Positions 18,726 through 58,062 of a DNA stretch of 64,000 nucleotides are shown here, piece after piece. Made by a program: the position numbers and the translations under genes. The notes beneath the pieces are model-generated. The model made no database searches and was not told the origin of the DNA. It saw only the letters and a list, made by a program, of their open reading frames with translations. Position 1 is the first letter of the stretch, and every line of letters starts with the position of its first letter. Origin of the DNA: Chrysomallon squamiferum. Its lineage: Eukaryota > Animalia > Mollusca. Location of the stretch: contig CM022679.1 of NCBI GenBank assembly GCA_012295275.1, forward strand, positions 17,980,001 through 18,044,000, written 5' to 3'.

Positions 18726-19286
18726 GTACTTTGTTAAGCAAAACCAGGTGGCTGAGTGATGCTTCATGTATGTAACAATACTGCATGAATAAACATGTAT
18801 TTTCAGAAGTACTTTTAAGGTTTTTTTAAAGCAACTGTACAGAAAAAACAAATAAGGTGCCATTTTTTTCTGTTGCCAATTTTTCCAGTGCCATTTAGTC
18901 CTACAACTCTCTGTAACATGAAATCAATCAATTTATAATCTTTTTATGAAATATATTGATAATTCTTGTGCAGATAAAGTAGTAGAATTTATTGATCATT
19001 AATCAATGTAAACAGTAATCCCATATTTGGGGCAGAGTTTTCCTTAACAGCAATTGGTCGCTGCATGAATGAACTACTGTCAGAGAACTATATTTTCTCT
19101 GTGATATTGTAGTGTTTTTTGTTTTGTTTTTTTAGTTATTCATTTTATTATGTGATCTAAAATATTTTTCTGTTTATAAGCACTAAGAATAGAAATTGTC
19201 TTTCTTACAAATAATAATGGAAATCTGGCTTAAAGGAGACTAGTTTCTGTAAATGTCTGTTTTTGGTTAATACAGTATTTTACATA

Positions 19287-19970
19287 CAGTGGTACTTCGA
19301 CTTACGAGTGCCCCAACTTACAAGTTTTCTGAGTTATGAGCAGTCATGTGGTTGATTTTTTGCTTTGAGTTGCAAGCAGAAATCTGAGTTATGAGCAAGC
19401 TTCAGATACGCAGCTGCTAGTTAGCATAAAACAAACAACACAACATTCAGCCAGCATCCTGTATCTCACTCTTTTAGTTACCGCCTCGCGGAAGCATCTC
19501 TGTTGTGTTTGTGTTTTGTGCAGTATTTTGCCAAATTTCTTTTTTCTGACAATGGATCGTAAGAACGTGAGTGCAAAGGACAGCGATGAGAAGAAGAAGC
19601 AGACGCATTAAAGCATGTAATCATGTGAGGAGTGCATATAGTTGACTTTGCTACTGCTAGGCAGTACAAGTGTAGTACTATATTGAAGCAAAAGGAGTCA
19701 ATAAAGGCTGTAACTGTAGCCATAGGCATTAAAATAATTTGTGTGATTATCAGGATAAATACACTTTACAAAACCAATTTATTTCTTTACATTCTCTTTT
19801 TTATTTTTTTTTTATATAATATTTGTCATTTATAAATACATTTTTAAATTATGGGGTTTGGGGGGGCTGGAACAGATTAATGTTTTTTCAGTTAATTTCA
19901 GTTGGGAAAATTGATTTGATATACGATCAAATTGAGTTATGAGCACAGTCACAGAACAAATTAAACTTTT
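19287..19970 (+). mobile_element. Tigger/pogo element, copy 3
   Basis: TA|CAGTGGTACTTCGACTTACGAG left end; HTH remnant HIVDFATARQYKCSTILKQKESIKAV. Confidence 0.82.
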
Positions 19971-19974
19971 AAAT

Positions 19975-21870
19975 CATAAAAATAAAAACTACATTCTCTG
20001 GATCAAATGAAAGCTCATTTGTTTACGGTTCAAACAATGTGTGCCACTGTGATGTGCCACGTTTGGTGTAGAGCAGCTCTGCACTTGAAAGTAGCAAGTG
20101 CTTGGTGAAATCACCTTTAAGTTACGTTATCTACAGAGTAAAATTGCAACTAGAAAGGACTGGCGCTGTTTAGAATGATTATATGTTGTTTATATTTTTA
20201 ATAACTTGTAAGATCCATATTTTATTATATGTTATGACTTACTGTATATAAGATGAATATGTTCTGAAATAAACTAATTAACTGTTTTGCTGATTACTAT
20301 CTTCCGTTCTAAAACAGTTGATTATTTTGCTTTCAAAATTCTTGTGATAAACGGCGAATTAAGAATTGTAAACATAACAAAGTATACTACATAACAGAAC
20401 AATATATTCCGAGGTATTGATGGAATGCTGAATAAAAAAATAAACATTTCTTTTTAATATCATAAAATTGTAAATTGATCAGTTTTAAAACTTAGATTAT
20501 TTTTGCTTGTTGATAAACTCTATCAGAGAAAAGTTCAACAATGGTCAGATGATAGGTAACTTTTGTTTGCTGTCAAATCACAGTAAGTACATAATTTTTT
20601 TATGTCTGCTTCAATTACCACACCTGTGTCTTTAATTGCCTCTAGTCTCATGATTACATACATTTTTTAATTAATACCTGCAACACCTTTCTGGAGTAGA
20701 ATCCAAGGATTAGCCAAGTTTATGTATTGCAGAGGATTATAGCTAAACATAAAATACTTGTAGTCCTTTTAAGTAATATTTATATACACATCACAGTATC
20801 TTAACTTACTACTACTAATTATTTAATTGAGTGAAAATTCAAGCTGCTTATGTAAATAAAGTTGTGCTGTTCCATATAAAGGTGTTTGACCCATATCAGT
20901 TAGGGTTCTTTGTTGATATTTTTTTTTAAATGGCCACTCCTTTGTCATTTAACTACCTTAAAATGCAATATGACCCTAAAATAAAATGGATCTGAAGTTC
21001 AAACATACGTTAAGCTATAGATAAAAAAAGGAATCACATTTAAAAAAAAAAAAATCTTCCAATGACTGCAGCAATGGCAGATCAGCTGCTCTTTAAACTA
21101 TAAACAACAACAAATAAATGTTAAATTCTAATTAATTCTTGCTGAAACTACCCTGACTTGTTTTCTCAAAGTTTTGGCATTTACAGTGCCCAAAAATATA
21201 TGGTTGCTGTGGACTGAATTGAAAAGGTAATTTTTTTGTTATGGGCTTGGGGCATAAAAATTATCTTAAAAATTTAGACTCAAGTTTGTCATTTGAAAGA
21301 TTTTGACAGATTGTTCACAAGGCTGGTTGAATATTTCAAATAAGACCAAAATGATTAAAAGTGCAAGCACAATGTCTGCTTGCACTTTTAATCATTTTAG
21401 GAGAATTCTGCTGTGTGTCAATTTGAAGATTTTGGCATGTTTAGCATGTTATTGTGAACACACATACAAATATACAGGTCTGAAAAAAATTGAGCTCATT
21501 TAGCAAGTTGGTTCTAGCACTCTTGTCGATTTTAAGTCTTTTGTATCAATTATTTTTCAAAGTACAGTTGGCCATAATTGCCCTTTCTAATAATATGCCA
21601 AAATATGGTTGAAAACAGATTAAATACCTGTTGTACCAATTTGCATATATCTTTTGAACTGCTGGAGATAGTCATAATTTTTGGTGTGTTTTGTTTCTTT
21701 TTGCTACAGCTTTCATTTTGTGCAAATGTTCTTGCATATTATATGAAATTAAAGTCAGAACAAATTTGCCTGCTGGTACCTGCACTGTTATAATTTTCTA
21801 TAATAATAATATATGCTTTCTTTTATTGATTTAATTTTACATCACTGATACTTTCATAAATTTTTATGTC
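19975..21870 (+). repeat. Unclassified dispersed repeat family R1, copy A
   Basis: 20521-20660 is a near-exact reverse complement of 32655-32795; collinear inverted match continues along most of its length; 21060-21780 also matches 40700-41360 directly. Confidence 0.85.
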
Positions 21871-31264: not shown

Positions 31265-31924
31265 ACACTGTTCAGTTATTGTTTGTCTTTTTTTCACTTG
31301 ATATTTTTTTATAATAAAATATAAATCTTGTTTTGCCATTATATTCCAAAATAATTGCTTTATGGAGGCATAAATCAAATTGAAAAGCTGTTTTTCTCTA
31401 CAGAAAATCAATATTTGTTATGAACCTGCTGGCATGTTTTAATAAAGGCAGAACAATCTTTGGTTAAAAAGCTTTCTCATCCTCATCTGAATATCTTTGC
31501 AATAATGAAGTCTCAAGTAAACAATTAGTTGTCCAGTGCAACCTACATAAAAAATGAAAGAGGATGAATCTGAAAGTGACCAATTATTTTCACTATATTT
31601 TTAAGTAATTAAATTACTCAACAACTTGGAATTAATTACTAAGTTTTTAAACTTAGGAAATTATATTTTAAGGCCACCTTAGGGGGAATAGAACTAAGAA
31701 GTTATTCCTCTTCATACTCTTTTTAAATATGAAGTCAGTTCTTCTATGTTCAAACTAGCTTAATTAAACCAGATATAAAAATTAAATATTTTTAAAATAA
31801 TTTTAATCTCATTAATTGTTATAGCCTTAAGATTAAAAAGTTGGAAAGTTAATCCTGAGACCAAATCCTATTTAAATTTTAATATTTTAAAGTGTTTATT
31901 TTGTAATTTTATAATAAATTAGCA

Positions 31925-32498
31925 CATAGTGAAAGCTGTAGCAAAATGAATGAAAACACACAAAAAATTATGACTCTCTCTCCAGTGGTTGAAAAGATAT
32001 ATGCAGATTGGTACGATGGGTATTTGGTCAGTTTTCAGCCCTATTTTCACTAATTAGCAGAAAGGGCTACTTTGGCCAACTCTAGTTTGAAAAGTAATTG
32101 ACCCAAAAGGCTGAAAATCAATAAGAGTGATGGGACCAACTTGCTAAATGAGCTCAATTTTTTCAGACCTGTATGTATGTGTGTTCACAGTAACATGCTA
32201 AACATGCCAAAATTATCAAAATGACACATGGCAAATGACTAAAAGTGCAAACAGACATTGTGGTTTCAGTTTTTGTCTCATTTGACAAATTCAACCTGTG
32301 TTGTGAAAAATTGATCAAGATCTTTCAAATGACATACTAACATTTATATTAAAAATATTTATATTTTTTTTCTGTTGAGCCTATAAAACAAAATTTACCC
32401 ATTCAGTTTATATAGAACAGCACAACTTTATTTACATAAGCAGCTTGAATTTTCACTCTATTAAATAATTAGTAGTAATGAGTTAAGATACTGTCGTT

Positions 32499-32529
<31 letters not shown>

Positions 32530-33726
32530 ATGTTACTTTAAAGGACTACAAGCATTTGATATTTAACCATAATCCTCTGCAGTACATAAACTCGGCTAAT
32601 CCTTGGAGTTTACTCCAGAAAGATGTTGCAGGTATTAATTAGGGACAATTAAATGTATGTAATCATGAGACTAGAGGCAATTAAAGACACAGGTGTGGTA
32701 ATTGAAGCAGGCATAAAAAAATTATGTACTTACTGTGATTTGACAGCAAACAAAAGTTACCTATCATCTGACCATTTTTGAAATTTTCTCTGATAGAGTT
32801 TATCAACAAGCAAAAATAATCTAAGTTTTAAAACTGATCAATTTATGGTTTTATGTTTTAAAAAAGTTACTAGATTTTTATTCAGCATTCCATCAATACT
32901 ATTGAATATATAGTTTAGTTTGTTATAGTTTAGGATTTTTAATGTTTATCACAAGAATTTTGAAAGCAAAATAATTCAGGGTATTAAATGGAAGATAGTA
33001 ATCGGCAAAACAATGTTAGTTCATTTATTTCAGAATGCGATTTTGCCACAAACATGTAATGTATATGCTAAAAGTAGGAACACTGATGAAAAACACAGCC
33101 AACAAGTTATTAAAAATATAAACAACATATAATCATTTTAAACAGTGCCAGACCTTTCTAGCTGTACATAAAATCTACGACGATTTCAGTCTGTAGAAAA
33201 CATCACTTGATGGCAGTTTCACTGAGCACAACCTATTTTCAAACGCGGAGCTTCTTTTCACTAAAGAAGACACACCATAGTGTCACACATTGTTTGAAAG
33301 CTAATTGAATGATCTTCCATTTGATCCCTTGAACAAAGGTTTTATTTTTGGCCACTTTTTTTCAAAATTGGTTTGAAGGCATGAAAAAGTAAATTTTTTG
33401 ACAAAACTTTTGATGTAAGCTATTGACAGTGACTTACACACTATTAGAAAGATTGAACTTTGACCCTAGTAGCTGTGCAAAAAATAACATTGAAGCCCTT
33501 TTGGCGAAAACAAGTGCCCCCACCACGTTTAACACTCTCGTACAAAGAACTGATTTAACATACAACAAGAACAACAACATTTAAAAGAGTACATAATGAT
33601 AATTACTTCCATGTATTTGTTTTTTATGGTGGATTTCTAGAAGGGATATGGGAGTGGAGGAAAATGGACAAAATCTGAACTTTTAACGGCTTTTACCAAT
33701 TATATCAGCTAGGCTGCTGGTATCTA
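31925..33726 (-). repeat. Repeat family R1, copy B (inverted)
   Basis: Reverse complement of copy A (31925-33350) and of copy C (33570-33726 vs 40501-40655; 31925-32350 vs ~40960-41300). Confidence 0.85.
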
Positions 33727-34549: not shown

Positions 34550-37033
34550 TGGGCATGACCACCATCCTTTGAACCCTCATATCTCAGGAACTACTGGGCC
34601 AATCTTCATGAAATTGGTATTGTTGAAAAGGCAATATGACAAGGATTCCAAACCTGCCATTATTATTCAGGTTTGAAAATTTGGGTGTCACTGACCGTTT
34701 GACCTTTGTTATGACCTTGAAATTGACCGTGTGGATCACGTGACCTTGAGATGAGCTTTATTGAAATTTAATCTCCCACATGTTAACTAAAACATATAAA
34801 AGTTTCCTGAGAGTAATATTTTTTGTTTAGCCATAATATAGATTTAAAAAATGCATACCTGCATGGATGATTGATAAATGCATTACAATGTACATTTTTC
34901 ACATGTATACACTTCTCTGAGACCAAAAACTCATCTTTGGAGTTAAAACCCAGATGACATATCTGAAGGAATGCCTGAAGGATATAAAAAGATGCATAAT
35001 GGCATGACATATTCTACACAATCAGGCTCAAAGGGTTAACAGGCATGTCAGGAACTCCTTGAAATCCCCAGGTGAAATCCCCATTGAACACATGGCAATT
35101 AGAAGTTTAAGACAAAGAAGTTTCTTCATCTGCATTTCTTTGACAATCTGAAGCTTTTTAAGTTGGATGTTGTTAAGTAAGCATTGTTTTCTTCATAAAA
35201 CCTATAAAGTCATTTTATCATGTCATGTGGCCTTGCCATTGGTTTTGAACAAGGTTTCAGTCAACAACAGTACAACCCAGTCTGAAATCAAACTTCATCA
35301 AGTGATGTACTGCACAGATGGCACAGAGTATGAACAAGGTCTACCTACACATTGATAAACTGTGATTTATACTTGAAAGTTTGACCTAAATGCCGAAGGC
35401 TTGTGGGCCTTTGGCAAAGACACATGTACTGTGCTGCCATTTTATAACCTGCTTAACTTTACTGAAAGGGTTTCAGGGTTTGATTTGATATTTAGGAAAG
35501 CACTGACTTTGTTCTATTGAATTGAAGGTGCAGGCAATACTGAAAATCCTCATTTCTTCCAGGACTAACTGCAGCTTTTATTCTCCTGAAAATGTGTGTT
35601 ATCAACACAATCATACCAAAAAGGAGTTGTTACAAAGTATGGAAAACGGAGGACGTCAAACTCCTCACTCTTCGAAATGGGATCAAAACACAGGACATCA
35701 AGATTATCTGTTGACATCAAGTTTTCAACATTACGGAAAAAGTGTTGTGATCCCCTTAATCACCATCCTAAGCAAGCACGCACTATATCTTTAAGAATTG
35801 TTAGCATGGGCACTTACAAATGATTAGTAAATCCAAAGACACTAGTGCTAGGAGTCAAGTTGTGCTGTGACTGTTTGATTAGCCTTCAGAAATCAAAATT
35901 CCAAAATCCTGCAGAGGATGGCTTTAGTATGGGTGGTATTACTATGGGAGAGTTTGATGATATCTTGTCAGACAAACCACTGGTTGTTGTTTCCCCAGAA
36001 AAGGACTTTGATTTGAATTCTATTCTATCAAGTTTAGGCGAAACTCATGTTAAGCTCCATTCACTAGCATGTTCCAGTAAATGAATGAAAAGACAGAAAA
36101 ACTAGCATCGGCTACAGAAACATTAAAATGACATCTTGAAACACTCTCTGATATTCCGCTTCATTCTCCTGAAAGTGATCTTAATTTTTTCAGGAACATG
36201 TAGGAGGAGTTAAAATAGAAATTCAACAAGTCTGAATCCTACCCAGAGCGTGTGCAAATCTTGACTTTGTCACCCTTTACCATTTGAAACAATGAATTAC
36301 CAAGTGAAAAAAAGCCGTGCAGTGAAGAAAGAGAAAGGGGTTCTATCCTTCTGTGATAAGAAACAACGGAAAGTTCTGTCAAACGAATTGAAGGAGGAAA
36401 AGTACAATTTTATGAAAGTGATGAGAACAGTAGAATGTGTCCAGGAATGAAGGATACAGTGAGCATTTGAAACAAAGATGGTGAGAAGGTTAAGCATCCG
36501 AAACACCTAGTTCTCTCAAATTTATGTGAACTTTATGCATACACTTAGGCCTACAATGTCTTACTCGATGATCAAGAGAGATGGTGATTCCTAGCATCCA
36601 GAATTGATCATTCAGGTTTTAGTTAATCAGATGTTAATGGCAGAAAAGTGTTATTTTCATGGACATGCATTTTTTAAATCTATATTGTCGCTGAACAAAA
36701 AATTTTACATCCAGGAAAATTTTATATATTTTAGTTAACATGTGGGAGATTAAATTTCAATAAAAGTCATCTCAAGGGCACGTGATCCACACAGTCAATT
36801 TCAAGGTCATAACAAAGGTCAAAAGGTCAGTGACACCCAAATTTTCAAACCTGAATAATAATGGCAGGTTTGGAATCCTTGTCATATTGCCTTTTCAACA
36901 ATACCAATTTTATGAAGATTTCAGATTTGGTGCTGTGGAATCTCCGTCAACAATTATACCAAGTTTCATAAAAATCTGAGACGGTCGGATTTAAATTTTT
37001 ATTTTTTTTGAGTGAATTGACACAGAATGATCC
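34550..37033 (+). mobile_element. Sola2-like DNA transposon with long inverted repeats and a degraded transposase
   Basis: About 260-bp inverted repeats at 34601-34860 and 36661-36920; hand translation near 36402-36540 gives VQFYESDENSRMCPGMKDTVSI*NKDGEKVKHPKHLVLSNLCELYA (FYxxDxxSRxxPGxKDxV motif as recalled for Sola2); right end ...tgacacagaatgatcc. Confidence 0.75.
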
Positions 37034-40500: not shown

Positions 40501-41360
40501 TAGATACCGGCAGCCTAGCCAATATAATTGGACAAGGCTGTTAAAAGTTCAGATTTTGTCCATTTTCCTCCCAAATCCCTTATGTAAACCCTACTATGAA
40601 AAACAAATACATGGAAATGAAGATCAATATGTGTTCTTTTAAATGGTGATGTTGTTTTTTTTATTCTTTTTTTTTTAATATAATTTTTTTTATTTATTTC
40701 ACTGACTGCAACAATGGCAGATCAGCTGCTGTTTAAACTATAAACAACAACAAACAAATGTTAAATTCTAATTAATTCTTGCTGACTTGTTTTCTCAATG
40801 CTTTGGGGCTTACAGTGCCAATAAATACATGGTTGCTGTGTACTGAACATAATGATAATGGTGCACTGACTCGCAATTTTCCTTCAAATTGAAAAGGTAC
40901 TGTTTTTCATGGGCATGGCTGATAAAAAATGAAAAATATTTTTTATTAAAAATGTTAGATACAAGTTTGTCATTTGAAAAATTTTGACAAATGTTCATAA
41001 GGCTGGTTGAATATTTCAAATAAGACCAAAACTGAAATCACAGTGTCTGTTTGCACATTTAATCATTTTAGGACCATTCTGAGATCATTTAACAAGTTGG
41101 TCCCAGCACTCTTGTTGATTTTAAGACTTTTGTATCAATTATTTTTCCAACTACAGTTGGCCAAGGATGCCCTTTCTGCTAATTGCCAAAATATAGTTGA
41201 AAATGGACCAAACAGCTGTTGTACCAATTTGAACTACTGGAGATAGTCATATTTTTTTTGGTGTGTTTTGTTTCTTTTTGCTATAGCTTTCATTTTGTGC
41301 TAATGTTCTTGCATATTACATAAAATCAAAGTCAGAAAAAAAATTCCAGCATGTACCTGT
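40501..41360 (+). repeat. Repeat family R1, copy C (internally deleted)
   Basis: Shares tgactgca.caatggcagatcagctgct.tttaaactataaacaacaac and aaggctggttgaatatttcaaataagacc with copy A. Confidence 0.85.
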
Positions 41361-43517
41361 TTTATTTCTTTGAAAGTTAAACAAATCCAGTTACCATAGC
41401 AGTAATTCTTTGTTCAAACTGTTTCTCATTATTCTCTTGTATCATATTGGTTGCTAAGTGAAGATACATTAAAAATTGGCAGCCATTATTTTAAGTGAAA
41501 TTTTGTCAGGACCTGATGATAAGTTGGTTTACTCTGTTTCAAATCACTGATAAGCATTTATTTGAAAGCTATAATCATTTCACTGGTTTTTGAATTTCAG
41601 TTTTAAGTCATTCTAATCTAACTCAATTTGTTGTATTGGGATACAAATATGTTCTTCAAACATATTTCACTAAGGCTAGTGAGATGACTAAGGGCAGTGT
41701 CTGTGCTTGTAATTGTCATAATGCTTATTTAATATACTTACATTCATTATCCAGTTAACAGAGTACTAATATTTCTAAGTCAGTATTATTTTTAATATCA
41801 TGTAGCTTTTGCTTAGGTATGTCTGAAGTGCAAATACATTTGTAGATTTATGAATTTAGCCTACATTATTGTTTGCATCAGTAGACTAAGAGTATAAGCA
41901 ATGCTTGCAGGCAGCAGGTAGATCGGTTGCTCTTTTACAAACTGGTAAAATCAATAACCAGTCCAGCGAAAATTACTCCATAACAGAATTATAGCATGAG
42001 CCTTCCAGCAGTTGTTTAATGCTACAACCCCATAAACAACAGAATGAAATACATTAGATGTTGATATGTTTAATGGCTTTTCTTTCTTTTTTCTTTTTTT
42101 AATTTATGTTTGTTTTACAATAGGTAATTATTAGCTAATAGCTGTATTGTAGTTGTAATTGGAAATAATATATTATGTTTATTTGTTTCTTCTGGAAGCA
42201 AAATGTCATTTATTTTTAAGTGTTTATATTATTTATTTATATTAAGTTCATATTAAAATAAATATTAAAGCTATGCAATATTTGGGTATAATGAGTAATT
42301 ATATGCATTTTCTTTTTCTGTAACTAAGGTATATCTAGGTATTTATTTGGGTACACATACACAGATACTGTTATAAGGACAATTCTATCTATCTATCTAT
42401 ATTCCTTCTAGAAGAGAACATTAGTTTATTTGATAAATTTTTTTTTATTATTTTGTCTCTTTTGATTATACAAATAAAGTTTAAACTTAAGAAGAAGCAT
42501 TACATTTAAGGACATTTTGGTATTTTAACCTGCTTAAGTGGGTACTTTGAATTTCTTGGTCAATAAACAAAACAAAAAGCAGCTTTTATGGCAAAAAGGT
42601 TTTGTATTGATTATTCTTGGTTTCATGGCATTGAATTTGATCAGTAAGTTTGGATGTAATTAGTTTTTTATTTTAATTTAGTATATTTTTAATATTTAAA
42701 AATAAATAGAAAGTGGATCAGTGAAATTCTGTTACTGATAAAATCACTCTTTACATCCAGTTCCCTATTGTTTATCATGATTTTTTAAAATCATAATTTA
42801 ATTTTTAGAGTTTATTAATTTAAAATAATTAACAGATGCACACAAATATATTAGCTATATAGTTTTATTATCTGTTCAGTGCTATAATATTATTACTGTT
42901 ACTTCTGCTGCTATTATTTTTATTGTTACTGTCATTGTTATTACTAAGATTGTGTAGTAGTTGTTACAAATTTTTGTTACTTTATTATTATTATTATTGG
43001 CATTTTGAACACTTCGAATCACTTGTTTTGTTTATTTGTAACAATAATAATAAAGCACACAGAGAATTGTTTTACACAACAAACATGTCAGACAAAAAGT
43101 ATCAAAATAAATTCTGAAAATCTGACAAGTTTAGCAAGGATTTACAAATAACAAGGCTGAAAGATGCTGGATGAAAATATGCACAGCAGCAGGGTTTATG
43201 ATAGGGGCCAATATGCACAAAATATTCACTGTTTTGTGTTGTTTATTTAAATATTTGTTGCTTCAATCATATTTGGCATATTGTCTCATTTCTCTTTACA
43301 ACTTCTTCCTAAGGTTTCCGACTTTTCCCTAATGTGTCTAGAAGGATAACTTACTTCTTTCTATTTTTTTAAAGTCTAGCTTGAACCCTGTAAAAGTAAG
43401 TATTACAAATCCCATACTTTGATATTTTGTTGTAACATGTTCTTGTGTCAGTAGTTGTAGTGTAAAATGGATAATAAAATGTTGTTATGACTTGACTGTA
43501 GTGTTTTCTACTTTCAG

Positions 43518-43583
43518 GGTAACGGGTGGTGAACTGTTTGAAGATATTGTTGCTAGGGAATTCTACAGTGAGGCAGATGCCAG
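43518..43583 (+). CDS. CaMKII: CaMKII exon 5 (66 nt): VTGGELFEDIVAREFYSEADA(S)
   Basis: ctttcag acceptor; AG|gtaatg donor; phase 2/2. Confidence 0.97.
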
Positions 43584-43709
43584 GTAATGTAGAGAATGAA
43601 GATTTTTCTCATATAACTATAGTTGTATTAAATTGGTAAAAGTTTCAAAAAAATTAATATCATTGTAGATTATTGGTAAGATTGGTTTTAAGCTGCGTAT
43701 TCACTAAAG

Positions 43710-43710
<1 letters not shown>

Positions 43711-43748
<38 letters not shown>
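43711..43748. repeat. (TG)19 microsatellite
   Basis: Read directly from the sequence. Confidence 0.9.
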
Positions 43749-43749
<1 letters not shown>

Positions 43750-44309
43750 CTCTCTATGTATGTACGTAATAATATGTGTATGTGTAAGTAGTTGAATAAG
43801 TTGTTCTTACTTGTATAAAGATAACCAGTCTTTAATCTATTTCTCATTAAGTGTGATTTCTTTATTAGATGGATGTTTGTGTGCATATATTTAAAATCTT
43901 TTAGTAAGTTTGTAATTTATTTGTTTTTGTTAAAATTAATAAAAGTGATATTCTAACATGAATTTTTTAAAAAGCCATTTTGTGTGTATGTGTGTGTGTG
44001 TGTGTGTTTTTTTATACAAAAAAAAAGATAACTTATGAAACCCCACCTAATTCATATTCTTATCAGTAAGATGGTATTACTATAATTTCAAGCATTTTAT
44101 TCACACTCTACACTTAAAATCTCTGCGTGGCAGAAGGTATTATTTTTGACAATGTAAATAATTCAGAAAAATTATGAATTCATTTTCCATATATGTAATA
44201 TAGAAACAGCCTTTAATTATGGTCATCCAGTAACAAAGATCATCCTGCTGTTAAGACATAATTTATCAAATCCTTCATCTGGATCTTAAAAACAAAATTT
44301 CACAGCATA

Positions 44310-44521
44310 CAGTGGAACCTCAGGTTACAAATTTAATTTGTCCCAGAACTGGGATTATATCTTTAATAGATGTTGACATCAAAACCAACGTCAAACAAAA
44401 GCTTGTCATGGTGCGTCGCTGTAGTTCGTAACTCAGGACATTATTTGTAAACTGCCCAAGATCACAGTTCATAATTTGATTTGGTCATGCTTCAAGGCAT
44501 TCGTTACCCGAGGTTCCACTG
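44310..44521. mobile_element. Tigger-type MITE
   Basis: TA|CAGTGGAACCTC ... GAGGTTCCACTG|TA. Confidence 0.85.
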
Positions 44522-47173
44522 TATTTATTTTTGTGATGGTGCATGTTAGCTTAGTGTGTGCATTAACTTTTTTGTTTTTTAATTTATTGTTACTGCTGTT
44601 TATAATCTGAATTAAATAATTTTGGGTAATTCCATGCATAACTGTGTTATGTAATATACAGTTAAGTAGATAATTTAATTGCAGAATTTTGAAAAACAAT
44701 TTGACCAGAGTATCTTATGATTTTAGATTTGTAACTAATAATTCATAGTGAAAGATTTATACATGTATTCTATTCAGTATAATTATTATGTCAACAAGTT
44801 CAATATACTGAAATTATGATTTTTAAAATACATTTTTGTCTTTGGATTGAATGTTACCCACCTGTGATAAAGGTATAAACTATATAAAATTAAAAAAATA
44901 ATAAATAAATTAATAATAATAATAATATTTACTTGCTTAAAAATATGAACAGTAATATTTTATTTCTAAATGAATATAAATCAGCATTCTAAAGTAGGGC
45001 AGACTCATTTTTTCACTTTTCTTTTGTTATTTCTAATGCAACAGTTCATTCATCATATTCTGTGAAATTTAAGTAACACTATTTTCTCTGAAATAAGATT
45101 GTAACAGTATTATGTTCTAAAATAATTTAAGTACAAAAATAATTTATTCTGTCACAGAATGACTTACCTTACACTTCCCAGAAATTTTGAAATTTAAATC
45201 CTTAAAGGATTTGTCTTGATGATGATGATAACAAGAACAACAACAATAATAAAGCTTTCAACTGCCTAAAGATTCACGAGCAGTCATAGGCCTTTGTGTG
45301 TAGTTTGATATTTAAATTTTTTATGATTTAAGTTAGTGATTTATTCTGATGTTTGATGTCTTCAAGAACCCAGCATCAGGTTCACAGAGCTTGATATTGA
45401 AAGTAAAACATATTTTTAGTCCTCATCTTCTAGGCAGATGTGTTTTGGCATTTGCTTTTTGATACCATATTTGCAGAAATCAAAATATGAAAATTTGTGT
45501 ATTTCATTTCTGTTATGCTCCACTTCCATTAATAACATTTTCTGCCACCTGATCCAGATTTTTTGTGTTTATAATTTCTAACATACTGATAATTCAGTGT
45601 AAATTGTGGAACAATCAACCTGACATTGGCATCAATTCATTTAGTGTTATACTTTAGCAGATACTTTTTATAGTCGTTCAAACTGTTCAGTTTTTAATAT
45701 GGTATGGTCATATTACCAATTGACATTCAGTGGATAGTTTGAATTTTCAAGAACTTTATTATTTTACTTCTGTAAAAAACAAAAAATAAAAATAAAAAAC
45801 CAAGAACAAATTAAACTTTTTTTATAATAATTGTCTTTTTCCTGACTGGTCTTTAATTAAGAAGATATGCAGGGAATATTTGAACATATGTTGTTTTTCA
45901 GTAAACAAATATGTTCGTTCTCAATAATAAAAATGAAGGCTTAATGATATATGATGAAAGTAAGTAAAATGTTGCATACCATAAAGAGCACTGAGCAATG
46001 TTTTTCAATTCATGCTTTATTCAACTTACTGTTTATTTTTAATGTAAATATCAAATGTATTTAGAGAAATATTTAAATTTATCAGCTGATGAACAGATAA
46101 TTTGTTTTTAAGAAATTAAGTATCAGTTATGCATTGAATTGGACCAGGCCAGGTTTTTTTTTGTTTGCTTCTGATGAACTCATCATGTGCATGTAACAAT
46201 CAAGAAATTAATTTTCTCTCATATGTAAAAGGTTATGATTTAAGATTTGTTTGCATCTTAATATTGCTTAGATAAATAACACGCATAAGGAAGAAATAAA
46301 AATAACGGATTAAAAAATAAATAACTAAATAAATGATATTTTTGCAGTTTTGCGATGTATGTTTTCAGTTTGTTTTTGCCAGTTTTTCTAAATTACTCAA
46401 ATTATCTGTTTAAAAAGTTTGAAAAAATAAAAAATTAACATTAGATAGTTACGTAGACATCCCAATGAAAGTAATGCAAAGTAAAGAGGATTTCATCATC
46501 TATCATTATTTTAATCATACTGATTGGTAAAAAACCCACACCCACCTTTATAAATTATTTATCTAAACTATATCTACATTATACCAACATTATCTTTAAT
46601 TATTAACATGTTAGTAGATATAAATGGATTTAACTGCATGTTTAATATTTCAAACTGGTTTCATTATGTCAGTGTTAGTTTTATGGTTAACTATTAAAGT
46701 CAAATCAGTTGTACTTATTAATAAAAGTGCTGAATAATAATAATATTAATTTATTGTTAATTTTGAAGTTGAAAACAAAACTGTAATGTTATTATAAGAA
46801 ACATATAATAATTTACTGATTGTTCTTAATTTTATTTACTGCATGTGTCCCTTGTTTTATTATTTTAAAAATATATAATAACAATAATAATAAGATATAA
46901 AACATAATTTAAAATAATTAGAGTTTTTGTTTCTATTTTTCTGTTATACTGCTTTTGAAATAAATTTGTTTTAAAATCTAAACTTTTATTTAGCTGTTAT
47001 GGTTTTGAAAATATATCTATGTTTTAAAAAGTAATTCATATATTTTTAGTTGTTTTAAAAACTAGTACTTGTATTTGTTCTTGTTTAGCACACACCTGTA
47101 ATAGCAAAATACTAATCAAGCAAACAATATTATTTTGGTAAGAGCATTTTTAATGCAGCTTTCCCAATTTCAG

Positions 47174-47246
47174 TCACTGTATACAACAGATCTTAGAGGG
47201 TGTGAACCACTGTCATCAAAACAATGTAATACACCGGGATTTGAAG
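47174..47246 (+). CDS. CaMKII: CaMKII alternative exon 6a (73 nt): (S)[24 protein letters not shown]
   Basis: tttcag acceptor; AAG|gtaact donor; same length and phase (2/0) as 6b; HRDLK intact; not represented in the supplied ORF track. Confidence 0.9.
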
Positions 47247-47487
47247 GTAACTCCATGTTCAGCATGGAAAATCATGCTTGGATAAATCTGACTGTAGCAT
47301 TTATGACAAGACACTTGACATAACCTTTAACACAGCTGACCAGATATTTAGTTTGAAAAACAATATTCCTAAAAAGTATGGTTGAGATCTGTATTTTCAA
47401 AAATGTGGTTGATAACTTAAACCTTTTTTCAACATATTTAAAAACAAGCAAGATATATATGTATATTTTGTTTGTTTATATATATAG

Positions 47488-47518
<31 letters not shown>

Positions 47519-48425
47519 GATAGATTAAATTAATCATCAAAACTTTTTCTCTATTTCTAATCGTGTTTATTTTCACATTTTGTGTCTGGTGTCTTTTATT
47601 ATCTTTCTTTGGTGTCAAATTTTTCCATTTATTTTTATTTTATATTTTTATTTTAAAAGAAATGAAGTGTCAGTCAAATCTATTAAATGACATATTTCTT
47701 AATGATTCTAATCATTAGATCAAAACAAATTTATGAAACATTTTCTAGCTGTAATATCGGTACTCTAGTATATCTTATCTTTGGATATAGTTAATTTAAA
47801 AAAAAATGTTCTTACTTCTGGAATTTACAGTTAATATTTTTAGATAAAATATTTTTTTCTTTGTTCAAGCAAAATTCAGACTCCTCTTTTTAAAATGTTA
47901 TTACATGACTTGAAACCATAGCCATAAATATTTATACTTACTTCTGGTTTTATTCTAAATATTTTTAAATAGGTCAGACAAAAGGAAAATGTATCTAAAA
48001 TTCCTATCATTATTTCCTCATGAAATTCTGTTTCTATGATCATTTATTGATTTTGGTGTTTAAAGGCTGTGAATGCGAACTATTTTAATCAGTAGTATAG
48101 ATTTTTGATATTCACTAAAAATATTAAAATAATACATTTAATAATCATAATAATTTTCAAAATAAAATAAACAAATCTTTGGTTGGAAGGGTTTAAACAT
48201 TTTAAAATAAATATTAAAGACCAATATATTATTTTTGTACAATAATCAAATGATGACTAATTTATTCAATACTGTAGTGTTAAGATTTTAATGTTAGATT
48301 GAACAAATAAGTAAATAGAATTAGTTCCAGTAAAAAAAGATACATCTAAAGAAGCTTGTGTTAGGGAGATTTGTCAAGTGTTTTGCTGAGTGTTTTGCAA
48401 TGGAACCAACGTAGGTTCAGTTACT
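47247..48425 (+). promoter_or_regulatory. Predicted long-range pre-mRNA duplex between exons 6a and 6b (arms ~47293-47337 and ~48353-48399, plus donor GUAACU 47247-52 with AGUUAC 48419-24)
   Basis: Base pairing read by hand: 14-bp helix 47307-20/48372-85 (one G-U); 13-bp helix 47325-37/48353-66 (one bulge); 8-bp helix 47296-303/48387-94 (G-U rich). All are nested in the correct antiparallel order. Confidence 0.7.
47485..47525. repeat. (TAGA)n microsatellite
   Basis: Read directly from the sequence. Confidence 0.9.
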
Positions 48426-48472
48426 GTAGTGTGGATGCTTTTGCTCATGTGTTGTTCACTGTTATCTTTCAG

Positions 48473-48545
48473 TCACTGCATGCAGCAAATATTAGAGAGT
48501 GTTAATTATTGTCATCAACATGGTATAGTACACAGAGATCTCAAG
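48473..48545 (+). CDS. CaMKII: CaMKII alternative exon 6b (73 nt): (S)[24 protein letters not shown]
   Basis: ctttcag acceptor, putative branch point CTCAT (A48447), AAG|gtaagt donor; visible within ORF 48390..48707. Confidence 0.95.
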
Positions 48546-48562
48546 GTAAGTCGTTTACATGT

Positions 48563-48706
48563 TGTCCAGGTCCACATGCATTCAGCGAGTTCTTGCTTTT
48601 TGGGATACATACAGGTGTGTGTGTTGATAGATCATATGATAAACAAATTTATCTCAGTGTTAGGAAAGAAGAAACAGACTTCATTAAAAAAAAGTGTAAA
48701 AGTGTA

Positions 48707-48753
<47 letters not shown>

Positions 48754-48845
48754 TATTACTTAATTTTAAATTGTTGAGGAGGATAAAAATTGTTTTGGTA
48801 GGAATTGCAACAGGAGATAATGAACTCGCTGTGTGTTGCTGGATA
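48563..48845 (+). promoter_or_regulatory. Predicted intronic stem downstream of exon 6b
   Basis: CAGCGAGTTC (48583-92) is the exact reverse complement of GAACTCGCTG (48822-31); outer helix TGTCCAG (48563-69) with CTGGATA (48839-45). Confidence 0.6.
48711..48752. repeat. (TG)21 microsatellite
   Basis: Read directly from the sequence. Confidence 0.9.
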
Positions 48846-51800
48846 TCTGGCTCTAGCCACTTTGTACATTATAGTTAATTTGTCTAAACAAACTTATAAT
48901 GTTCTTAAAATACATGCAGTTGTTGCCTGCTATACCTGACATCTGCAGCTCGGTAGATATTGTTTTGTTATCATTGTTATGATAAATAACTACTTTTAAT
49001 TAACAATTTAAATCACATTATTGACATCAATTTTTTTTTTTTTTTCAAAGCTATAGTGCCATATTCAGTAATGTGTACTGCAGGATTATATTTTTTTTTC
49101 ATCCAGTTTTGAATATTTTATATAATAAATATATAGAATGAAAATTCAACATTATGTATTAATTTATAAACTTGTATTTTTCAGATTTTAATTGTTCTAA
49201 CAGATGTTAGTGTAATACAAATGTCTGTAGCTTGCTTTATGTACTACAGAGCACAATTAACAAAGTTTTGTGAAAGTAGCATATATATGTAACTAACAGA
49301 TTACTATTAATAGGTCAACTATCTGGTAAAATACCAAAATACCGTTAAGACTTACGCTGTTAATATTCACGAAACCTTCTTGTTTGTTGATAGCAACATT
49401 TTTATTTTAACAACAGAGATGATGCTGAGATAACTGAAATGATGAATGAAATATTAGATAAAGATCAGGCACAAAAATGGAGATAAGAGACCACATAATT
49501 ACATAAAAAACCTAGCTAATACACAGTTAATGTCAGATACTGTATACATGATGCACTTGCATTCTTAAAACAAACAAAAAAGACAAAAAACTCAATTTTT
49601 TTATGCCTTTAATTTCAGTGAAATAATTGATACTTTTTTCTTTCTATAAATGTAAGCAGTTATGTATATATTATTTATTTTTCTATACTGGAAAAATAGA
49701 ATTTTAATAAATAATTGAAAAATAATTAGAATTTCAAGTTCATCTCATTTTATATTAAGTTCTAATGTTATTAAAAAAAAATCTTACAATGTAAATATTA
49801 AAAAGTTAAGTATACAAAGAACAGAAGTATGCATACAGTATAAAAAAAAAAAAAAAAATAAAAATTCACCAAATTTTTTTTTTTTTAATCAAGAAGTAAT
49901 ATGTTTGTGGTCTCTTTGGTTAATTGAATCCTATGAATCCAATAAAAATGTATATTTATTTTTTATTAATTGTGTTTACTTAATGGATACAGATGTATAA
50001 TAATAAAGTTTGATTTTATTCTTTCTTTTCTTTGAACAGTACAAAATGTAAAGGTCATATGTTCATTTCTCAAACAAAAGTATTTCGCCAGTTGCTGTTT
50101 TTTACACAGTCAGTTCTTGTATTGATATTTCTCCGACAGTAAACATTTAGAAATATTCTCTCCATAGTAACTATCACTTTCATTATCAAAATATTGTTAC
50201 CTAATTCCTGATATAAATTTAGTTACTAAACTGATGTATAAAACAATGTTTAGTCACACAATTATAACAGATCATTTCTTTCAAACTTGGCATTTTATAA
50301 AATGTTAAGGTATAAGGTCATAAGGCCAGATGTTTTGAAAAAGTGTTTTTTAAATATATATGCATTTGACACAATATTTAAATTAATTGACAATATAAAA
50401 ATTGTGTGTTTTTATCTTGAACTATTAGGATATGATAAAAATGCTCTAAAATAATAAGATTAGAAATCCAATCCGTTTAAGTTTTAGACATATTGTTTGG
50501 TTTTAGATTGTATGTCATTAAAATATTCTACCATTTTTCTAACAATAAGACATGTTTTTTAATATCTGATGACTTATGAATTCTTCTGACTTGTTCATTT
50601 GTAAACCAGTTCTGTGTATGATTATGTCAAGTGTTCTTGTAAAGACTTCTAAGTGGTGTTGTACAGTTGTTGCAGATCAAGTGGATTTCTCCTTACTAAC
50701 ATAAGTGATTAGAGACAACAACACAACATTTGATAATTACAGGCCTGAAAAGGCATACATGTATCGACTGACAAAATAGTACATAACAAAAAGTTTTTAA
50801 TGTTAATTTTCCCTTAACAGCAATAAAATAGATTAATGAAGTTTTTATATTATATAAATGGTATTTAAATTTTGCAAATGAGTAAAAACTTGTCATTTGT
50901 TTTCCAGAAGAATCAAATGTTTCAATGTTTTTCATGTTTGTGGTTTTTTTGTTTTTTTTGGTTTGTTTTTTGAAGTGTACTAATTGTAGTTATAAAGTAT
51001 TTAAAAAAAAAAAATTAAGTAAGAAAAGAAAAAGTAAAAGAAATATCAAAATATTTTTTTATTTTTATTATATATTTTCCATGTTTTTTTGTAACTAAGA
51101 AGTATGATAATGGTTAATTTGATTTTGATAAGGTGAGAAACTAATAAAGTCAGGAAACGGTGGAAAACATGTTACATTCAGGAAATTAATTAAGTGAATT
51201 TTAAACAAAAGCAAAAGCAGATGTTTTTAAAGGTCAGAAGACAGAAGTTTGTAAAAGCAAAAGATTAAAATGATTTTAAATTTTATACTTCCTGTTAAGA
51301 AATACACAGTTCATGTAAGTCTGTATATATACACACACATACATACACACACAAAAATGAAGAGACAGATTCAGAAGCAGTTAATGTAGCATCAAGTAAT
51401 GTAAACATACAAGTAAATTCTAAAAGATTTATTTAGAATTTAATTAAATGAATTATACATTTATAAGACTACACATATATATATAATTTTATCAACACAT
51501 TTGTGATTTAACAAAGGACAAAAGACATTTACATTTTTATAGTTGAATGCAATTAAGTTTTTTAATATTAACTATTTGAAATAATTGTATACAGTAGTTC
51601 TTCAGGTTTTGTTTAATTTTTTCTGTTGTTTGTTCTTAAAACTGGTTTATTCTGTCAAGGTGACTGTTGCTATGTTGGTGGTCTCTTGTTTTACTAAAAA
51701 GGAATCTTTTGAGACAAGTAAAGTTTGACTGATATTTTCAATCTTTAAATGTTTATTCAGGTTAAAACATCTTTGTCTTTTTTTCTATTTTATTTGGTGA

Positions 51801-52588: not shown

Positions 52589-52691
52589 CCTGAGAACCTG
52601 ATTTTGGCGAATAAAGTTGGAAGTCCTGCAGTCAAACTAGCTGATTTTGACTTAGACTGTGAGGTGCATAGATACAAATATTTTAAAGCAG
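52589..52691 (+). CDS. CaMKII: Putative CaMKII alternative exon 7a (103 nt): PENLILANKVGSPAVKLADFDLDCEVHRYKYFKA(G); DFD variant with GC donor
   Basis: Long poly-T tract + tttag acceptor; open frame; 17/34 aa identical to exon 7b; the equivalent end point falls on CAG|gccatg. Could be a decayed exon. Confidence 0.65.
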
Positions 52692-55309
52692 GCCATGTCA
52701 AAAATAATAATAATAATAAAAGAAAAAATTAAAAAAAAAAAATTAAATGATCAATTCTCATCAGTATTTCTCATTTCCTGCCTGGCTGAATATTTTGGCA
52801 AATGCTCTCTTCCTTTAAAAATTTGGTAAAAAGGAAAATTGATAATTATCAAAAAAAACAAACCAGAAAACACCCAGAATTCTTTTTTCGTATTAAGAAT
52901 ATATAAATTTTTATTTATTTCTTAATAAGTTCAGATGAAAATTTACAAAACATTGTTTCATTGATTTCTAAATGAATAATTTATTTCTGATCCACACTTA
53001 TTTTTTTATTTTTTATTTTTTTAAATTAATTTAACAATCAAAGTTCATTTATATCTATTTATCATAATTCATTTCTAAAAAGTTAAATTATTTATTTTAT
53101 TTTTTTATATATAAAGTTTTTGAAATGCAAACAAAAAATATGATTGTATTTTTTTTCTTTTCTTATCTTAATATTATTTCATTTCCTACTGAGTTATTAC
53201 ATTTTTATCAACATATTTTGTTAGTTATTTTTACCTTAAAATGAAAACATTTAAAAATATATTCATATGGTGAATAACAAAAATTCAAATACAAAACAGT
53301 TTTGTAATAACATGGTTTCTAAGCCAAATTTAACATGGGCTCTGATGAAAAGTGAACATTGTTTTCTAATTTATTTTTTTGATGTGGCCTCCTGTTTATG
53401 TTGTTGAGTTTAGATCTGTATATCTGTAATGCATAGATTTAGATTTTTCATTAACATTAATTTTAAACAGACTCCCTAAACATTTTTATTTCGCATTTAG
53501 GTAATTTTTTATTTGCAGAAATTTAATACAATGCATAAAGATAAAAAAAAAATATTATTTAGGTCAAATGTTTTTAAAACATTATGGTTCATCAGTAGTA
53601 ATAATATTCATTTTTTAATTTTAAGATTTTAATTATTTATCAGCTTAAATTCTTAATTTAAATTAGTTAAAGAAAAATGCATACATTTATTGTGAAAAAT
53701 GATAAGAATATGACAAACAGTAAATTATTGTAATCATATTTATTCTTTTTCATGGGAAATTGTTAATGTGGGCAAATGTTTACCTTCATAGAAAAAAGTT
53801 TTTGTTTCTTTATCAACTTTATTTGTTTGTTTTTTTGTGTGGTTCAGAAGGAAAGTCAGTGTTTTAGGGGGGTTAAATGAAAATAAAATGTCTATGAATA
53901 CACAGTGTGAATGTGTGAACCACAATGTCTGCTGTAGATTGTATAGAATCAGCTTGTTTTCCCACTAAATATACATGTGCCACACTCAGGAAATAAATAG
54001 CTACATCTTATTTTACTATTTGCATACATTACATTCATATAAAGATATGATACATTTCTTTAAAATTACTTCTAAGCAGATATAAATTTAATTTAAGCAG
54101 ACTGTTATTATTATTTTTTCAATTTTAAATTCTAACTACTCAAGTCAGACAAAAAAAAAAAAAAAAAAGAAGAAGAAAAAAAAAAAACCCAGAAAACAAC
54201 CACAAAAAAACCCCCAAACACAACACAATGAAATGTTTGTAGGTTATTTCAAAGGATTGGTGTGTGTTTTTTGAATGTGACTGTGCATGTGATTGTACAC
54301 TCATGCATGAATATGAGACGTATGAAGTATGTTATTAAATCCTTTGTTGTTGATGTATTTTGTTGGGGATACTGACATAAGTGACCCTCAATCCAAAAAT
54401 GCACAGGACAAAAAAGACCCCTCTGAATGAAAAACAAGGTAGTACAAAAGTCACCCCCTCACCAATTAAAAACAAAGTAGTACAAACACTCCCCAACTTA
54501 CAAAATATTCTATCATTGTTTAATATTATCTGTGACATCTAATCATCAAAATCATGGAATTTATGTAATTAGTTATTTGGTCAGGCTTTAAAAAATGACT
54601 AACTTTAAAAGTGATGCATATAATTAGCATATGAAAAATGACATGGCCTATCTTAGAAAATGATTTTTTCATGAAGTCATAATATCCAATGACATTTGGA
54701 ATTTACATCAGCTTTTGGTATTATTTCCAGAAATTATATTCAGTTTTCAAAATGTCATAATTTTATCCCCTGACATTGGGATTTCATTTTTTAAAAATAT
54801 TGTTTTGAATTGTTCTAGTTAAGGAGTAAGAGGGCAAGTATTGATAATTTATTAGAAATATTCCTGAAGTAACTGTTTTTAATTACCTTCAGAAAGTAAA
54901 CGATACTTTAATATGTATCTCATATAATAGAACATATAGCTGAAAGACAGAACCTTGGAGCCTTTGGAACCTGATTGTTCAATATTTGGTTGGTTCTAAT
55001 CCCAGAACAAATGTTTGGATGATTTTCAGTTCTGATTTGACAAAGCAGTATATGAGTATATATATTTTAAGTGATTAAAAATTAAATTTATTCTGTTTTG
55101 AATATTATTAATTACATACTGGGTCTTATCTACACTTTTGAGATGGACTTTTATTATATATTGTCTTCATTGTCAAATTAAAAAAAAAGAAAAATATTAA
55201 TAACATTATATTTTGGATTATAAATATTCAACTTTATAATTTGCCTATAATGTGAGCCACTGCATAGAAAGTAAGCATTTCTCACACAAGACAATAATGA
55301 GATAATCAT

Positions 55310-55930: not shown

Positions 55931-57873
55931 TTTGTTTGCAATCAAATCACGTGAAGTATAAAGCTAAGAAAACTATTTTATGATTCTGTTTCAAGTATCC
56001 AACTTAGCACATCTGCACTTTAATTGCCTTTTGTCTCATGTTAACAGACATTTTATTGCCCCTAATTAGTACTTTCAACAACTTTTTGGAGTGGGCTTCA
56101 AGCTTTAACTGAGTTTTTATATTGCATAAGATTGTTGTCCTTTTAAGTAACACATACATTTTCTGAAATAAAAAAAGTAAATGATAGAAAATTGAAATCA
56201 GTGAAGGCAAAAATGGAAGGTCAACTGCACTTTTCACTCAGAATGCTAATCCATTGTTGCTGAAACACTATGCAGGCATGTTTTTCAAAGTTTTATGACT
56301 TAAGTTATCTAAATACCCATTGTTTTTCAATTAATGATTCGGAGAAATTCTGATTTTGGTAACACAAAAAAGGTCGTTTCTGAGTATGCACAAAACATTT
56401 TTTTTTTTTTTTTTTTTTTTTTATTATTATACTTTTAATATGTGAATATCTTATTTTTCATTTTTGAATGCAACAGGCTATTTTCAATGGAGTGGCTCAC
56501 ATATATGTAAAATTCAATGTTTGGATACAGTATGATAAGAATTTGAAACCATCTACTTGAAGAATTTGAAGAATCTTCTTGACACCATATGTTAGTTGGC
56601 TGAATGTTGTTAAGTTTACCCAGATTTTGAACAATCAGACTAATATCTGCAAGTTTGAAAAAATAATAGAATGAAAAGGTTTTCATTAACTGTTAAGGAC
56701 CAGGTTGAAAGTTATAATAAATAACAATGTCAGTAAATGTTAATATCAGTTAACTAAAATTCCTAAAGGAAGTACACTTGATTTCAGATTTTAAATACAA
56801 ATTCCAAAAAATTAATAATAAAACTTACTCTTTAACTAGCTATCTAGATTAGCACATGGTTTTAAATCGTAATTACAGTTCCCATAATTAGGACCTTAAA
56901 GCATTATGAAATAAGTGCCTTGTCTTTGAAAGATGAATAAAGAATGAACAACATGTGTGATAATGGCTATAATGAAGATACATCAGATTGTCTGTATACA
57001 TGCTTAAGTGTATTCACTTAGTTTTGTTAACTCTAGCACATTCATCAGTGTGTACAGCAGAGTGCAAATAAAGTGGAATGAATGTAAAAAAGAAAACAAA
57101 ATACATTTATCGAACTTTAACATTAGAATGTATGAAATTACAGCAATTTTATGATAAATTTTATTTATTTTTTTGTCCCTAGTTTACACAGTACAGATTG
57201 CAATATATTTATAGTAAGTCAGTATATGTTTTTCAGAAAATTACCGAATATTTGTAATTTGAGAAATAAGTTGAATAATTTTGAAAGTATTTTTTACAAG
57301 TTGTACAGCTGTAACAAAAAGTTTTACCAGAAAACAACAAAATACATTAAACAAAGTCTGAAAACTTTAATAACTATTGAATTGAATATTGGTAAGTAAA
57401 ATTGAGTGATCTCCTGTTGTTTCTTCTTTCCACCAAAAAAAACAAATAAATAATATGTTGATGAGTAATAAACTTAACTGATTAGAAAAATCTGTGCAGT
57501 TAGTTCTGTAAATGAATACATAATATCAGTGCAGAAATATGGAAAATTTAGATAAAATTTAAATCGAAAAACATTATAAAATAAATAATAAATGCTATGG
57601 CCGACAACTTTTATCCTGTTTTTATATTTTTCTATAACTTTTTGACATAAAGAAAGGATTTCAGTTTAAAATAATAATGGTTATTCTGAGAATATTTTTA
57701 TTTTATAGTTTACTGAGTAGAGATTCAGGTTAGGTATTTTAAGCCCATTTCTATATACACAACCTATCTATGTCTAACAGCATTTCTTAACCCAGTTATC
57801 AAAATTACTTGGACAAACATAGAATACATCTGTTTATATATATGTTTAAATAGCTGTTGTTTCAGGATGATAA

Positions 57874-58062
<189 letters not shown>

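Follow-up and report, generated by a model that had tools for sequence, protein, structure and literature searches.

A predicted long-range RNA duplex in the intron between the alternative exons 6a and 6b of a Chrysomallon squamiferum CaMKII gene

Does RNA structure take part in the choice between two duplicated exons of a molluscan CaMKII gene? CaMKII is a kinase central to synaptic plasticity, and its exon 6 encodes a helix and the catalytic loop. The window analysed here, a stretch of 64,000 nucleotides of the Chrysomallon squamiferum genome, covers exons 3 to 12 of a gastropod-type CaMKII gene on the + strand, to which the exons, arms, hairpins and site C given below also belong. It contains two versions of exon 6, and a first-pass annotation had proposed that an RNA duplex spanning the intron between them prevents their joining.

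We first describe the exons. Exon 5 (43518-43583), located by tblastn with the protein P0029, is constitutive and has an RNA joint to 6b. Exon 6a (47174-47246) is the minor alternative, with a non-consensus +5 base in its donor and a peptide type also present in Octopus and Haliotis RefSeq isoforms, while exon 6b (48473-48545), with UGCAUG at its 5′ end, is the default alternative, being the one joined in the RNA seen. Exon 7 (7b, 57895-57997) is joined to 6b in RNA, the loose end of a contig of X7 coinciding with the exon start. Exons 6a and 6b are tandem 73-nt duplicates whose peptides are 71% identical, and a check of the coordinates gives the intron between them (47247-48472) a length of 1226 nt. 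They are homologous, of equal length and bounded by splice sites of the same phase, and both are in frame between exons 5 and 7b. Indeed, frame translation shows that either exon alone keeps the frame and that 5-6a-6b-7b and 5-7b both stop early, the former inside 6b. Since double inclusion is out of frame, no duplex is needed for exclusivity.

RefSeq models of Octopus bimaculoides (P0033, P0035) and of Haliotis (P0024, P0025) contain either the 6a-type or the 6b-type peptide without the other. Of 122 proteins, 6b is the sole version in 35 cephalopod-type and 7 Haliotis models and 6a in 3 Octopus-type and 3 Haliotis models, these being counts of gene models and not of expression. Gigantopelta aegis XP_041363803.1 contains an identical 6b peptide and also has a near-copy of an extra exon found here at 52589-52663. 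The exon pair itself is already known, from mammalian CAMK2D and from mollusc gene models, and the frame and the gene models support 6a and 6b as an either-or pair of CaMKII.

RNA was aligned over 43450-50800, using 4 of the 11 runs found, all of them as contigs. Two runs from a single study show the exon 5-6b joint, at depths of 144.8 and 27.8, and one shows the 6b-7b joint; 5-6b-7b is the sole spliced form in the contigs of these two runs of C. squamiferum. No joint involving 6a (5-6a or 6a-6b) appears in the contigs of these two runs, which is no proof of absence because contigs drop rare joints; they also show no strand, starts or levels. For exons 7a and 7b, a single loose end is the sole indication of use. 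Since contigs cannot show starts, no weight was given to those ending close to the 6a donor or the branch point. The calculated duplex with U1 is -10.6 kcal/mol for the 6b donor versus -6.5 kcal/mol for the 6a donor.

The exon 7a mentioned above is an in-frame 75-nt partial duplicate of exon 7 (52589-52663) in which DFD replaces the kinase DFG, its frame staying open up to a GC where the full 103-nt exon would end (52691). One RNA contig skips it. Of 7 RefSeq isoforms of Gigantopelta aegis, 5 carry a near-identical peptide ahead of the usual exon 7, and Haliotis models have a 9-residue version. Between 7a and 7b, 55250-55290 has a fairly strong, sense-biased pairing with 56470-56510 (-39.3 vs -31.9; rank 8 of the 783 seeded pairs considered below).

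The ends of the 6a-6b intron are complementary far beyond chance. Arm A (47293-47337) and arm B (48353-48399) are predicted to form three nested antiparallel helices (47296-303 with 48387-394, 47307-320 with 48372-385 and 47325-337 with 48353-366), to which 47293-296 in arm A and 48396-399 in arm B are added. The three helices comprise 29 Watson-Crick and 6 G-U pairs, with one bulged base and no A-C, and they loop out 1015 nt (47338-48352) that are AT-rich, carry a (GATA)n run and are single-copy by read depth. In a partition-function fold of 47170-48560, 33 of the 35 A:B pairs have probabilities of 0.9-1.0, the other two 0.36 and 0.50. The first-pass annotation was accurate on these points: the ten stretches that it quoted are all in place, its helices and lengths are as described, and its non-Watson-Crick positions are indeed G-U, which pair on the sense strand only.

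Over the windows proposed in that annotation, the duplex reaches -53.3 kcal/mol, a value equalled by 1 of 1000 dinucleotide shuffles. The core arms give -42.3 kcal/mol (0 of 2000 shuffles as good; antisense -32.4). With unbiased flanks, namely 130 nt at either end of the intron under a compact-helix score, the value is -39.2 (0 of 3000 shuffles; Gumbel p 2.5e-5) and the antisense strand, at -19.3, is 20 kcal/mol weaker. Among the 66 donor-flank by acceptor-flank pairs of the gene, A:B ranks first (next -20.7, others -9.8 +/- 3.0), with errors of one or two bases in some control coordinates of this comparison. When 783 seeded pairs no more than 6 kb apart were scanned, A:B scored -44.0 in sense and -32.4 in antisense, and the pairs above it were confined to a terminal-inverted-repeat element (4 rows) and a CA/TG microsatellite pair. 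Rfam covariance models gave 0 matches at E <= 1 over 46800-50900. No A>G change over the arms is listed in the RNA contigs (0 other letters, 3 records), with which partial editing is still compatible. Altogether, the modelling predicts a stable, sense-strand, long-range intronic duplex near regulated splice sites, and we consider A:B a real, well-placed and sense-specific duplex of a known kind, whose function is at most predicted.

The first-pass annotation had also asked whether the arms are the two ends of one transposon. Copy number was judged from a self-BLAST of the window and from RNA read depth. Arm A has the read depth of one contig each in X6 and X7, and an element near 44300-44520 draws up to 11 contigs. 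Nothing falls on the arms among the self-BLAST matches listed, and no target-site duplication was seen around them by eye. With single-contig depth, strand-asymmetric energies and no such match, A:B does not resemble a transposon with terminal inverted repeats. A 2.3-kb element in CaMKII intron 3 (34601-36920), with 257-nt terminal inverted repeats 94.6% identical, served as control, and its pairing is strand-symmetric. In intron 5, a small inverted-repeat element (44307-44516) belongs to a multi-copy family, because many RNA contigs with variants match it. The window also holds dispersed repeat families, 75-84% alike and in both orientations (4433-4952, 6810-7327 and 19316-19845; 20147-21764, 31918-33164 and 40501-41341).

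A complementarity of this kind could nonetheless have no role in splicing, being a lineage-specific product of chance or a decayed short inverted duplication, with splice-site strength, RBFOX motifs and message decay sufficing for the exon choice. The p value given the flanks speaks against this explanation, as does the fact that the first rank of 66 falls at the one intron separating exclusive exons. Moreover, a decaying DNA repeat should give G-U and A-C alike, and the 6 versus 0 found here has an estimated probability of about 0.04 at the base composition of the intron; the true inverted-repeat element in the window shows the strand symmetry that A:B lacks. On the other hand, very many introns were scanned, and conservation, to which we now turn, is on the side of no role.

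We compared the locus with organism B, a related species (X10 and X11, a single sample), in pieces aligned at 80% likeness that correspond to 47130-47281 and 48382-48551. At this likeness the alignment of organism B included neither arm A nor the site C discussed below, and arm B only from 48382 onward. No difference is listed over 48443-48521; in both pieces the listing omits differences within about 30 nt of the ends, which leaves 8 + 8 differences unplaced. Out of 80 metagenome loci, the four animal contigs with both exons (L005, L007, L036 and L078) were tested and loci with one exon or of spliced RNA were dropped. In these four, in that order, 64, 81, 37 and 72 of 100 shuffles were as good as the end-to-end duplex, and 74, 52, 11 and 69 of 100 with 300-nt flanks; under a looser score, 3 of 60 were as good in L078. 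Since these four distant loci keep the exon pair and do not have the duplex, the pair is older and wider than the duplex. Neither conserved arms nor compensatory changes were found in organism B and the four distant loci. Unconserved arms were among the outcomes that the first-pass annotation had said would count against it, and this outcome has partly come about: the alignment with organism B did not recover the arms, and the duplex is absent from 4/4 distant introns. Weighing the lack of recovered arms and of visible covariation against the statistics and the strand asymmetry, we consider it rather unlikely that the complementarity plays no part in splicing.

Several observations were made on the orthologous loci themselves. 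Three orthologous introns (L005:1401-1413, L007:9936-9948 and L036:6387-6398) share a TGTTTTATGT motif, 45-110 nt upstream of the 6b acceptor, that the window does not have at this position; it is possibly a branch point or a protein site. The first exon-6 copy of L078 (5945-6016) reads EAVLHCHQ, like mammalian 6v2/alpha/beta and unlike the mollusc 6a type, and in L074-L077 the 6b type is the sole exon-6 copy between exons 5 and 7. The CaMKII of L007 has two tandem versions of exon 11 (18071-18160 and 18694-18777), the regulatory segment around the autophosphorylation site. A scan of prokaryote genomes gave 9 matches, and the 4 that were translated are unrelated bacterial frames.

How, then, could the duplex act? 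The first-pass annotation held that it enforces exclusivity by blocking the joining of 6a to 6b, through occlusion of the 6a donor or through steric hindrance, which would be between U1 and U2. The donor (47247-47252) is complementary to 48419-48424 at 6 of 6 positions, but this helix is worth just -4.1 kcal/mol alone, has a probability of 0.01 in the fold of 47170-48560 and is absent from both 3.5-kb minimum-energy folds, and organism B is without base 48421 of the partner strand. The donor is not predicted to be sequestered, and the pairing is not conserved. Because the donor helix is weak, improbable and broken in organism B, the closure of a multibranch fold over the donor, as the annotation had drawn it, is unsupported. 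The two local hairpins of that fold, in contrast, are predicted, with probabilities of 0.94-0.99 and one terminal pair at 0.51: 47261-47278 (about 0.96), which falls inside a piece aligned in organism B, and 48403-48418 (0.94-0.99), in which organism B has 48417 T>G, the partner base not being visible. A further hairpin is predicted at 48440-48489 (core 0.97-1.0), over the 6b acceptor, the exonic UGCAUG (48477-48482) and the likely branch point at 48447, whose motif sits in an AG-free zone. Its core is unchanged in organism B and its outer pairs are changed; such a hairpin is odd for a default exon.

With A:B formed, 46 + 47 = 93 nt of single-stranded path would separate the 6a donor from the predicted branch point, or about 63 nt if both local hairpins collapse. 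Both values exceed the steric limit of ~50 nt described for the donor-branch point distance in PMC7969005, where RNA structure with steric hindrance is cited for Dscam exon 17. That precedent, the shorter path with collapsed hairpins and the skipping of 6a in the RNA seen would fit a duplex that enforces exclusivity. Nevertheless, the 93-nt path, the improbable donor helix and the persistence of exclusivity in lineages without the duplex make this very unlikely, and the A:B duplex by itself likely does not block splicing.

The GCAUG motifs offer a different handle on the locus. One of them (47262-47266, +16 after the donor) lies in the hairpin at 47261-47278, 27 nt before arm A, as a pentamer only and as a candidate RBFOX-type site; another is the UGCAUG in 6b. 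No GCAUG is found between arm B and 6b. Both motifs recur in orthologues as sequence motifs only. Indeed, 5 of 6 loci have a GCATG in the 160 nt that follow the 6a donor (p 0.0017), versus 1 of 22 at other donors, the 160-nt window having been chosen after seeing the data and L067 having been added for this motif count only. TGCATG encodes the first Cys-Met in 10 of 13 distinct exons of the 6b type, and the second Cys is TGC in 5 of 13; the loci in these motif counts share ancestry and are not independent. Synonymous identity to L007 and L036 is 30/44 for 6b, 20/43 for 6a and 133/329 for constitutive exons (6b versus constitutive, Fisher p 4.5e-4). As far as motifs can tell, the conserved layer is made up of the putative RBFOX-type GCAUG sites after the 6a donor and inside 6b; the arms look lineage-specific, and the motifs look like an older layer. 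In contigs of the vertebrate 6v1/6v2 type (L065:1-58 and L068:10215), the second exon's acceptor contains TGCATG and a GCATG follows the first exon at a distance of 143 nt, an arrangement that echoes the layout in C. squamiferum. As a positional rule, RBFOX proteins activate an exon from a downstream site and repress it from an upstream or internal one. (U)GCAUG is the Rbfox motif, and Rbfox acts in opposite directions in SCN paralogues (PMC12772994).

The reading that we favour, tentatively and at somewhat less than an even chance, is that the A:B duplex is an RNA bridge tuning the 6a/6b ratio together with an RBFOX-type protein, exclusivity being backed by decay of the out-of-frame double-exon message. 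The duplex would form during transcription and would leave a path of 93 nt, instead of about 1200 nt, between the 6a donor and the 6b branch point. Where no RBFOX-type protein is present, the stronger sites of 6b would win, 6b being the form in the RNA seen. Where it is present, probably in nerve or muscle, the GCAUG at +16 would act as a downstream site and activate 6a. Through the bridge, a protein bound there would come to lie about 75 nt from the 6b branch point and may add to the repression exerted from the UGCAUG inside 6b. Nonsense-mediated decay would then remove the double-inclusion and skipped forms, whose frame shift is shown by translation. In this reading, use of 6a in C. squamiferum would be regulated. 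As the arms were not found conserved, the duplex is a candidate for, and not a shown member of, the class of RBFOX bridges of the FGFR2, SCN9A and ENAH kind.

Several points count against such a tuning bridge besides the unrecovered arms: the RNA contigs show no 5-6a joint, the +16 motif is just a pentamer in a predicted hairpin, a GCAUG between arm B and 6b, as in FGFR2, is missing, and Rbfox can act in either direction among SCN paralogues. In addition, a stem bringing donor and acceptor together can promote their joining, as described for SF1 (PMC10790352). Taken further, the bridge might promote 6a-6b joining, so that 6a would serve at times as a poison exon and reduce CaMKII output by way of decay, double inclusion stopping inside 6b as noted above. 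We hold this to be extremely unlikely: 6a occurs alone in Octopus and Haliotis RefSeq isoforms, its peptide is conserved, and the two RNA runs, whose contigs drop rare forms, contain no 6a-6b joint.

Arm A also has a tentative second partner beyond 6b. Site C (50612-50640), the second-best partner of arm A in the window, offers 24 Watson-Crick pairs in three segments, 18 of them with one bulge and 6 more, and its pairing would loop out 6b. Within the 64 kb, the 10-mer core has no copies other than those at A, B and C. In different tests, 0 of 120, 1 of 60 and 0 of 40 shuffles were as good as A:C, and 11 of 800 and 9 of 500 with the arm fixed; with the whole 130-nt flank as query, 33 of 400 were as good, so that p is about 0.015-0.08 depending on the test. 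An unrelated site at 23162 scores -22.9 versus -23.9 for C. In 3.5-kb folds, which are unreliable, the A:B and A:C states are 1.1 kcal/mol apart (-709.5 vs -708.4). Because its significance varies with the test and an unrelated site scores nearly as well, we treat C as a lead only.

These features would suit a competition in which arm A pairs either with B, made first and leaving 6b free as the default, or with C, looping 6b out so that 6a is chosen, B then being a decoy for a loop-out like that of Us:Dd in srp. The small set of sites sharing the core, the better shuffle tests, the near-equal states and the presence of 6b in RNA agree with such a switch. The whole-flank result and the site at 23162 oppose it, as does the dissimilarity of B and C beyond the core, homology between them having been rejected with 80 of 785 windows as similar. 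Moreover, C was not aligned in organism B, and neither L007 nor L036 has an equivalent (31 of 40 shuffles as good in each). Helper helices were not significant: a clamp enclosing 6b (23 of 100 shuffles as good), a stem after 6b pairing 48570-600 with 48811-845 (5 of 40; rank 9 of 783) and a pairing of 48388-427 with 51659-698 (2 of 60) were all rejected. In L036, a stem after 6b had 0 of 40 shuffles as good, as one of 19 ortholog tests. We therefore regard the competing-partner switch as unlikely.

The tuning bridge, our preferred reading, can be extended into a wider speculation: molluscan CaMKII would keep the position of the bridge while its sequence is replaced between lineages, one RBFOX site would act on both exons, and in C. 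squamiferum arm A would flip to the 6b-looping partner, giving a bistable switch of the catalytic-loop exon that arose independently of FGFR2. We find this distinctly unlikely as a whole. If arms do turn over while their position stays, searches based on sequence conservation would miss such structures.

Among known systems, the exons themselves have a match in mammalian CAMK2D 6A/6B (6v1/6v2), which belongs to the same family, duplicates the same 73-nt exon, is mutually exclusive and is tissue-specific in mouse (PMC12060085, bioRxiv 10.1101/721589). The peptides differ, and the default is the first exon in mouse (same sources) and the second in the snail. The role of the mammalian choice is stated as unknown (PMC12060085), and the available parts of these two sources make no mention of an RNA structure for 6A/6B.

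The first-pass annotation compared the duplex with arthropod Dscam1, Mhc and 14-3-3zeta, which are not its closest relatives. In these genes and in Drosophila srp, each pairing loops out an exon, whereas in CaMKII A:B loops out none and only A:C would do so (PMC4691838, PMC6071210). In srp exon 4, with its Ud:Ds and Us:Dd pairings, it is Us:Dd whose geometry A:C would share, the second exon being looped out (PMC4691838). A docking and selector arrangement, in which each pairing loops out the unselected exon, was not found here; a candidate upstream docking site was rejected (38 of 40 shuffles as good). Human ATE1 7a/7b, with its elements R1-R5, resembles A:C in having one element with two possible partners and a long-range pairing over the second exon. 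Its competing arms overlap acceptors and are conserved (PMC7797038), whereas B and C of CaMKII cover no splice site and C is weakly supported.

SCN9A 5a/5b offers a parallel to the proposed tuning role. There, an ISRE1:ISRE2 stem and Rbfox2 change the exon ratio without loss of exclusivity, and SCN9A shares with CaMKII duplicated exons not divisible by three and an RNA stem with Rbfox motifs, which in SCN9A set the ratio (PMC12772994). In SCN9A the stem is found downstream of the second exon and shows conservation with covariation (PMC12772994), while the CaMKII stem lies between the exons.

Insects and mammals have provided tested cases in which RNA structure controls either-or exons; the open-access literature searched yielded none for CaMKII exon 6 or for molluscs. 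The closest likeness to A:B, a stem within the intron between exclusive exons, is IAS2:ISAR of FGFR2. In FGFR2 the stem lies between exclusive exons of which the first is weak, and CaMKII 6a-6b shows both features. The FGFR2 IIIb/IIIc choice involves this stem together with gcaug elements, which lie in exon IIIc and downstream of ISAR (PMC2471395). In FGFR2, as is predicted for CaMKII 6a/6b, joint inclusion of the exclusive exons can lead to decay, and both genes have GCAUG in the second exon and a two-element intronic stem, a predicted one in CaMKII (PMC2471395, PMC12772994). The intronic GCAUG lies 5′ of the stem in CaMKII, whose arms have 35 pairs, and 3′ of ISAR in FGFR2 (PMC2471395). Conservation of the FGFR2 stem reaches from sea urchin to human, and this stem has been tested (PMC2471395, PMC12772994), whereas CaMKII A:B is not visibly conserved and is predicted from sequence. 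With a 35-pair duplex and flanking GCAUG motifs in a 1.2-kb intron, the CaMKII locus of C. squamiferum would be a compact system in which to study RBFOX-coupled activation and repression by an RNA bridge.
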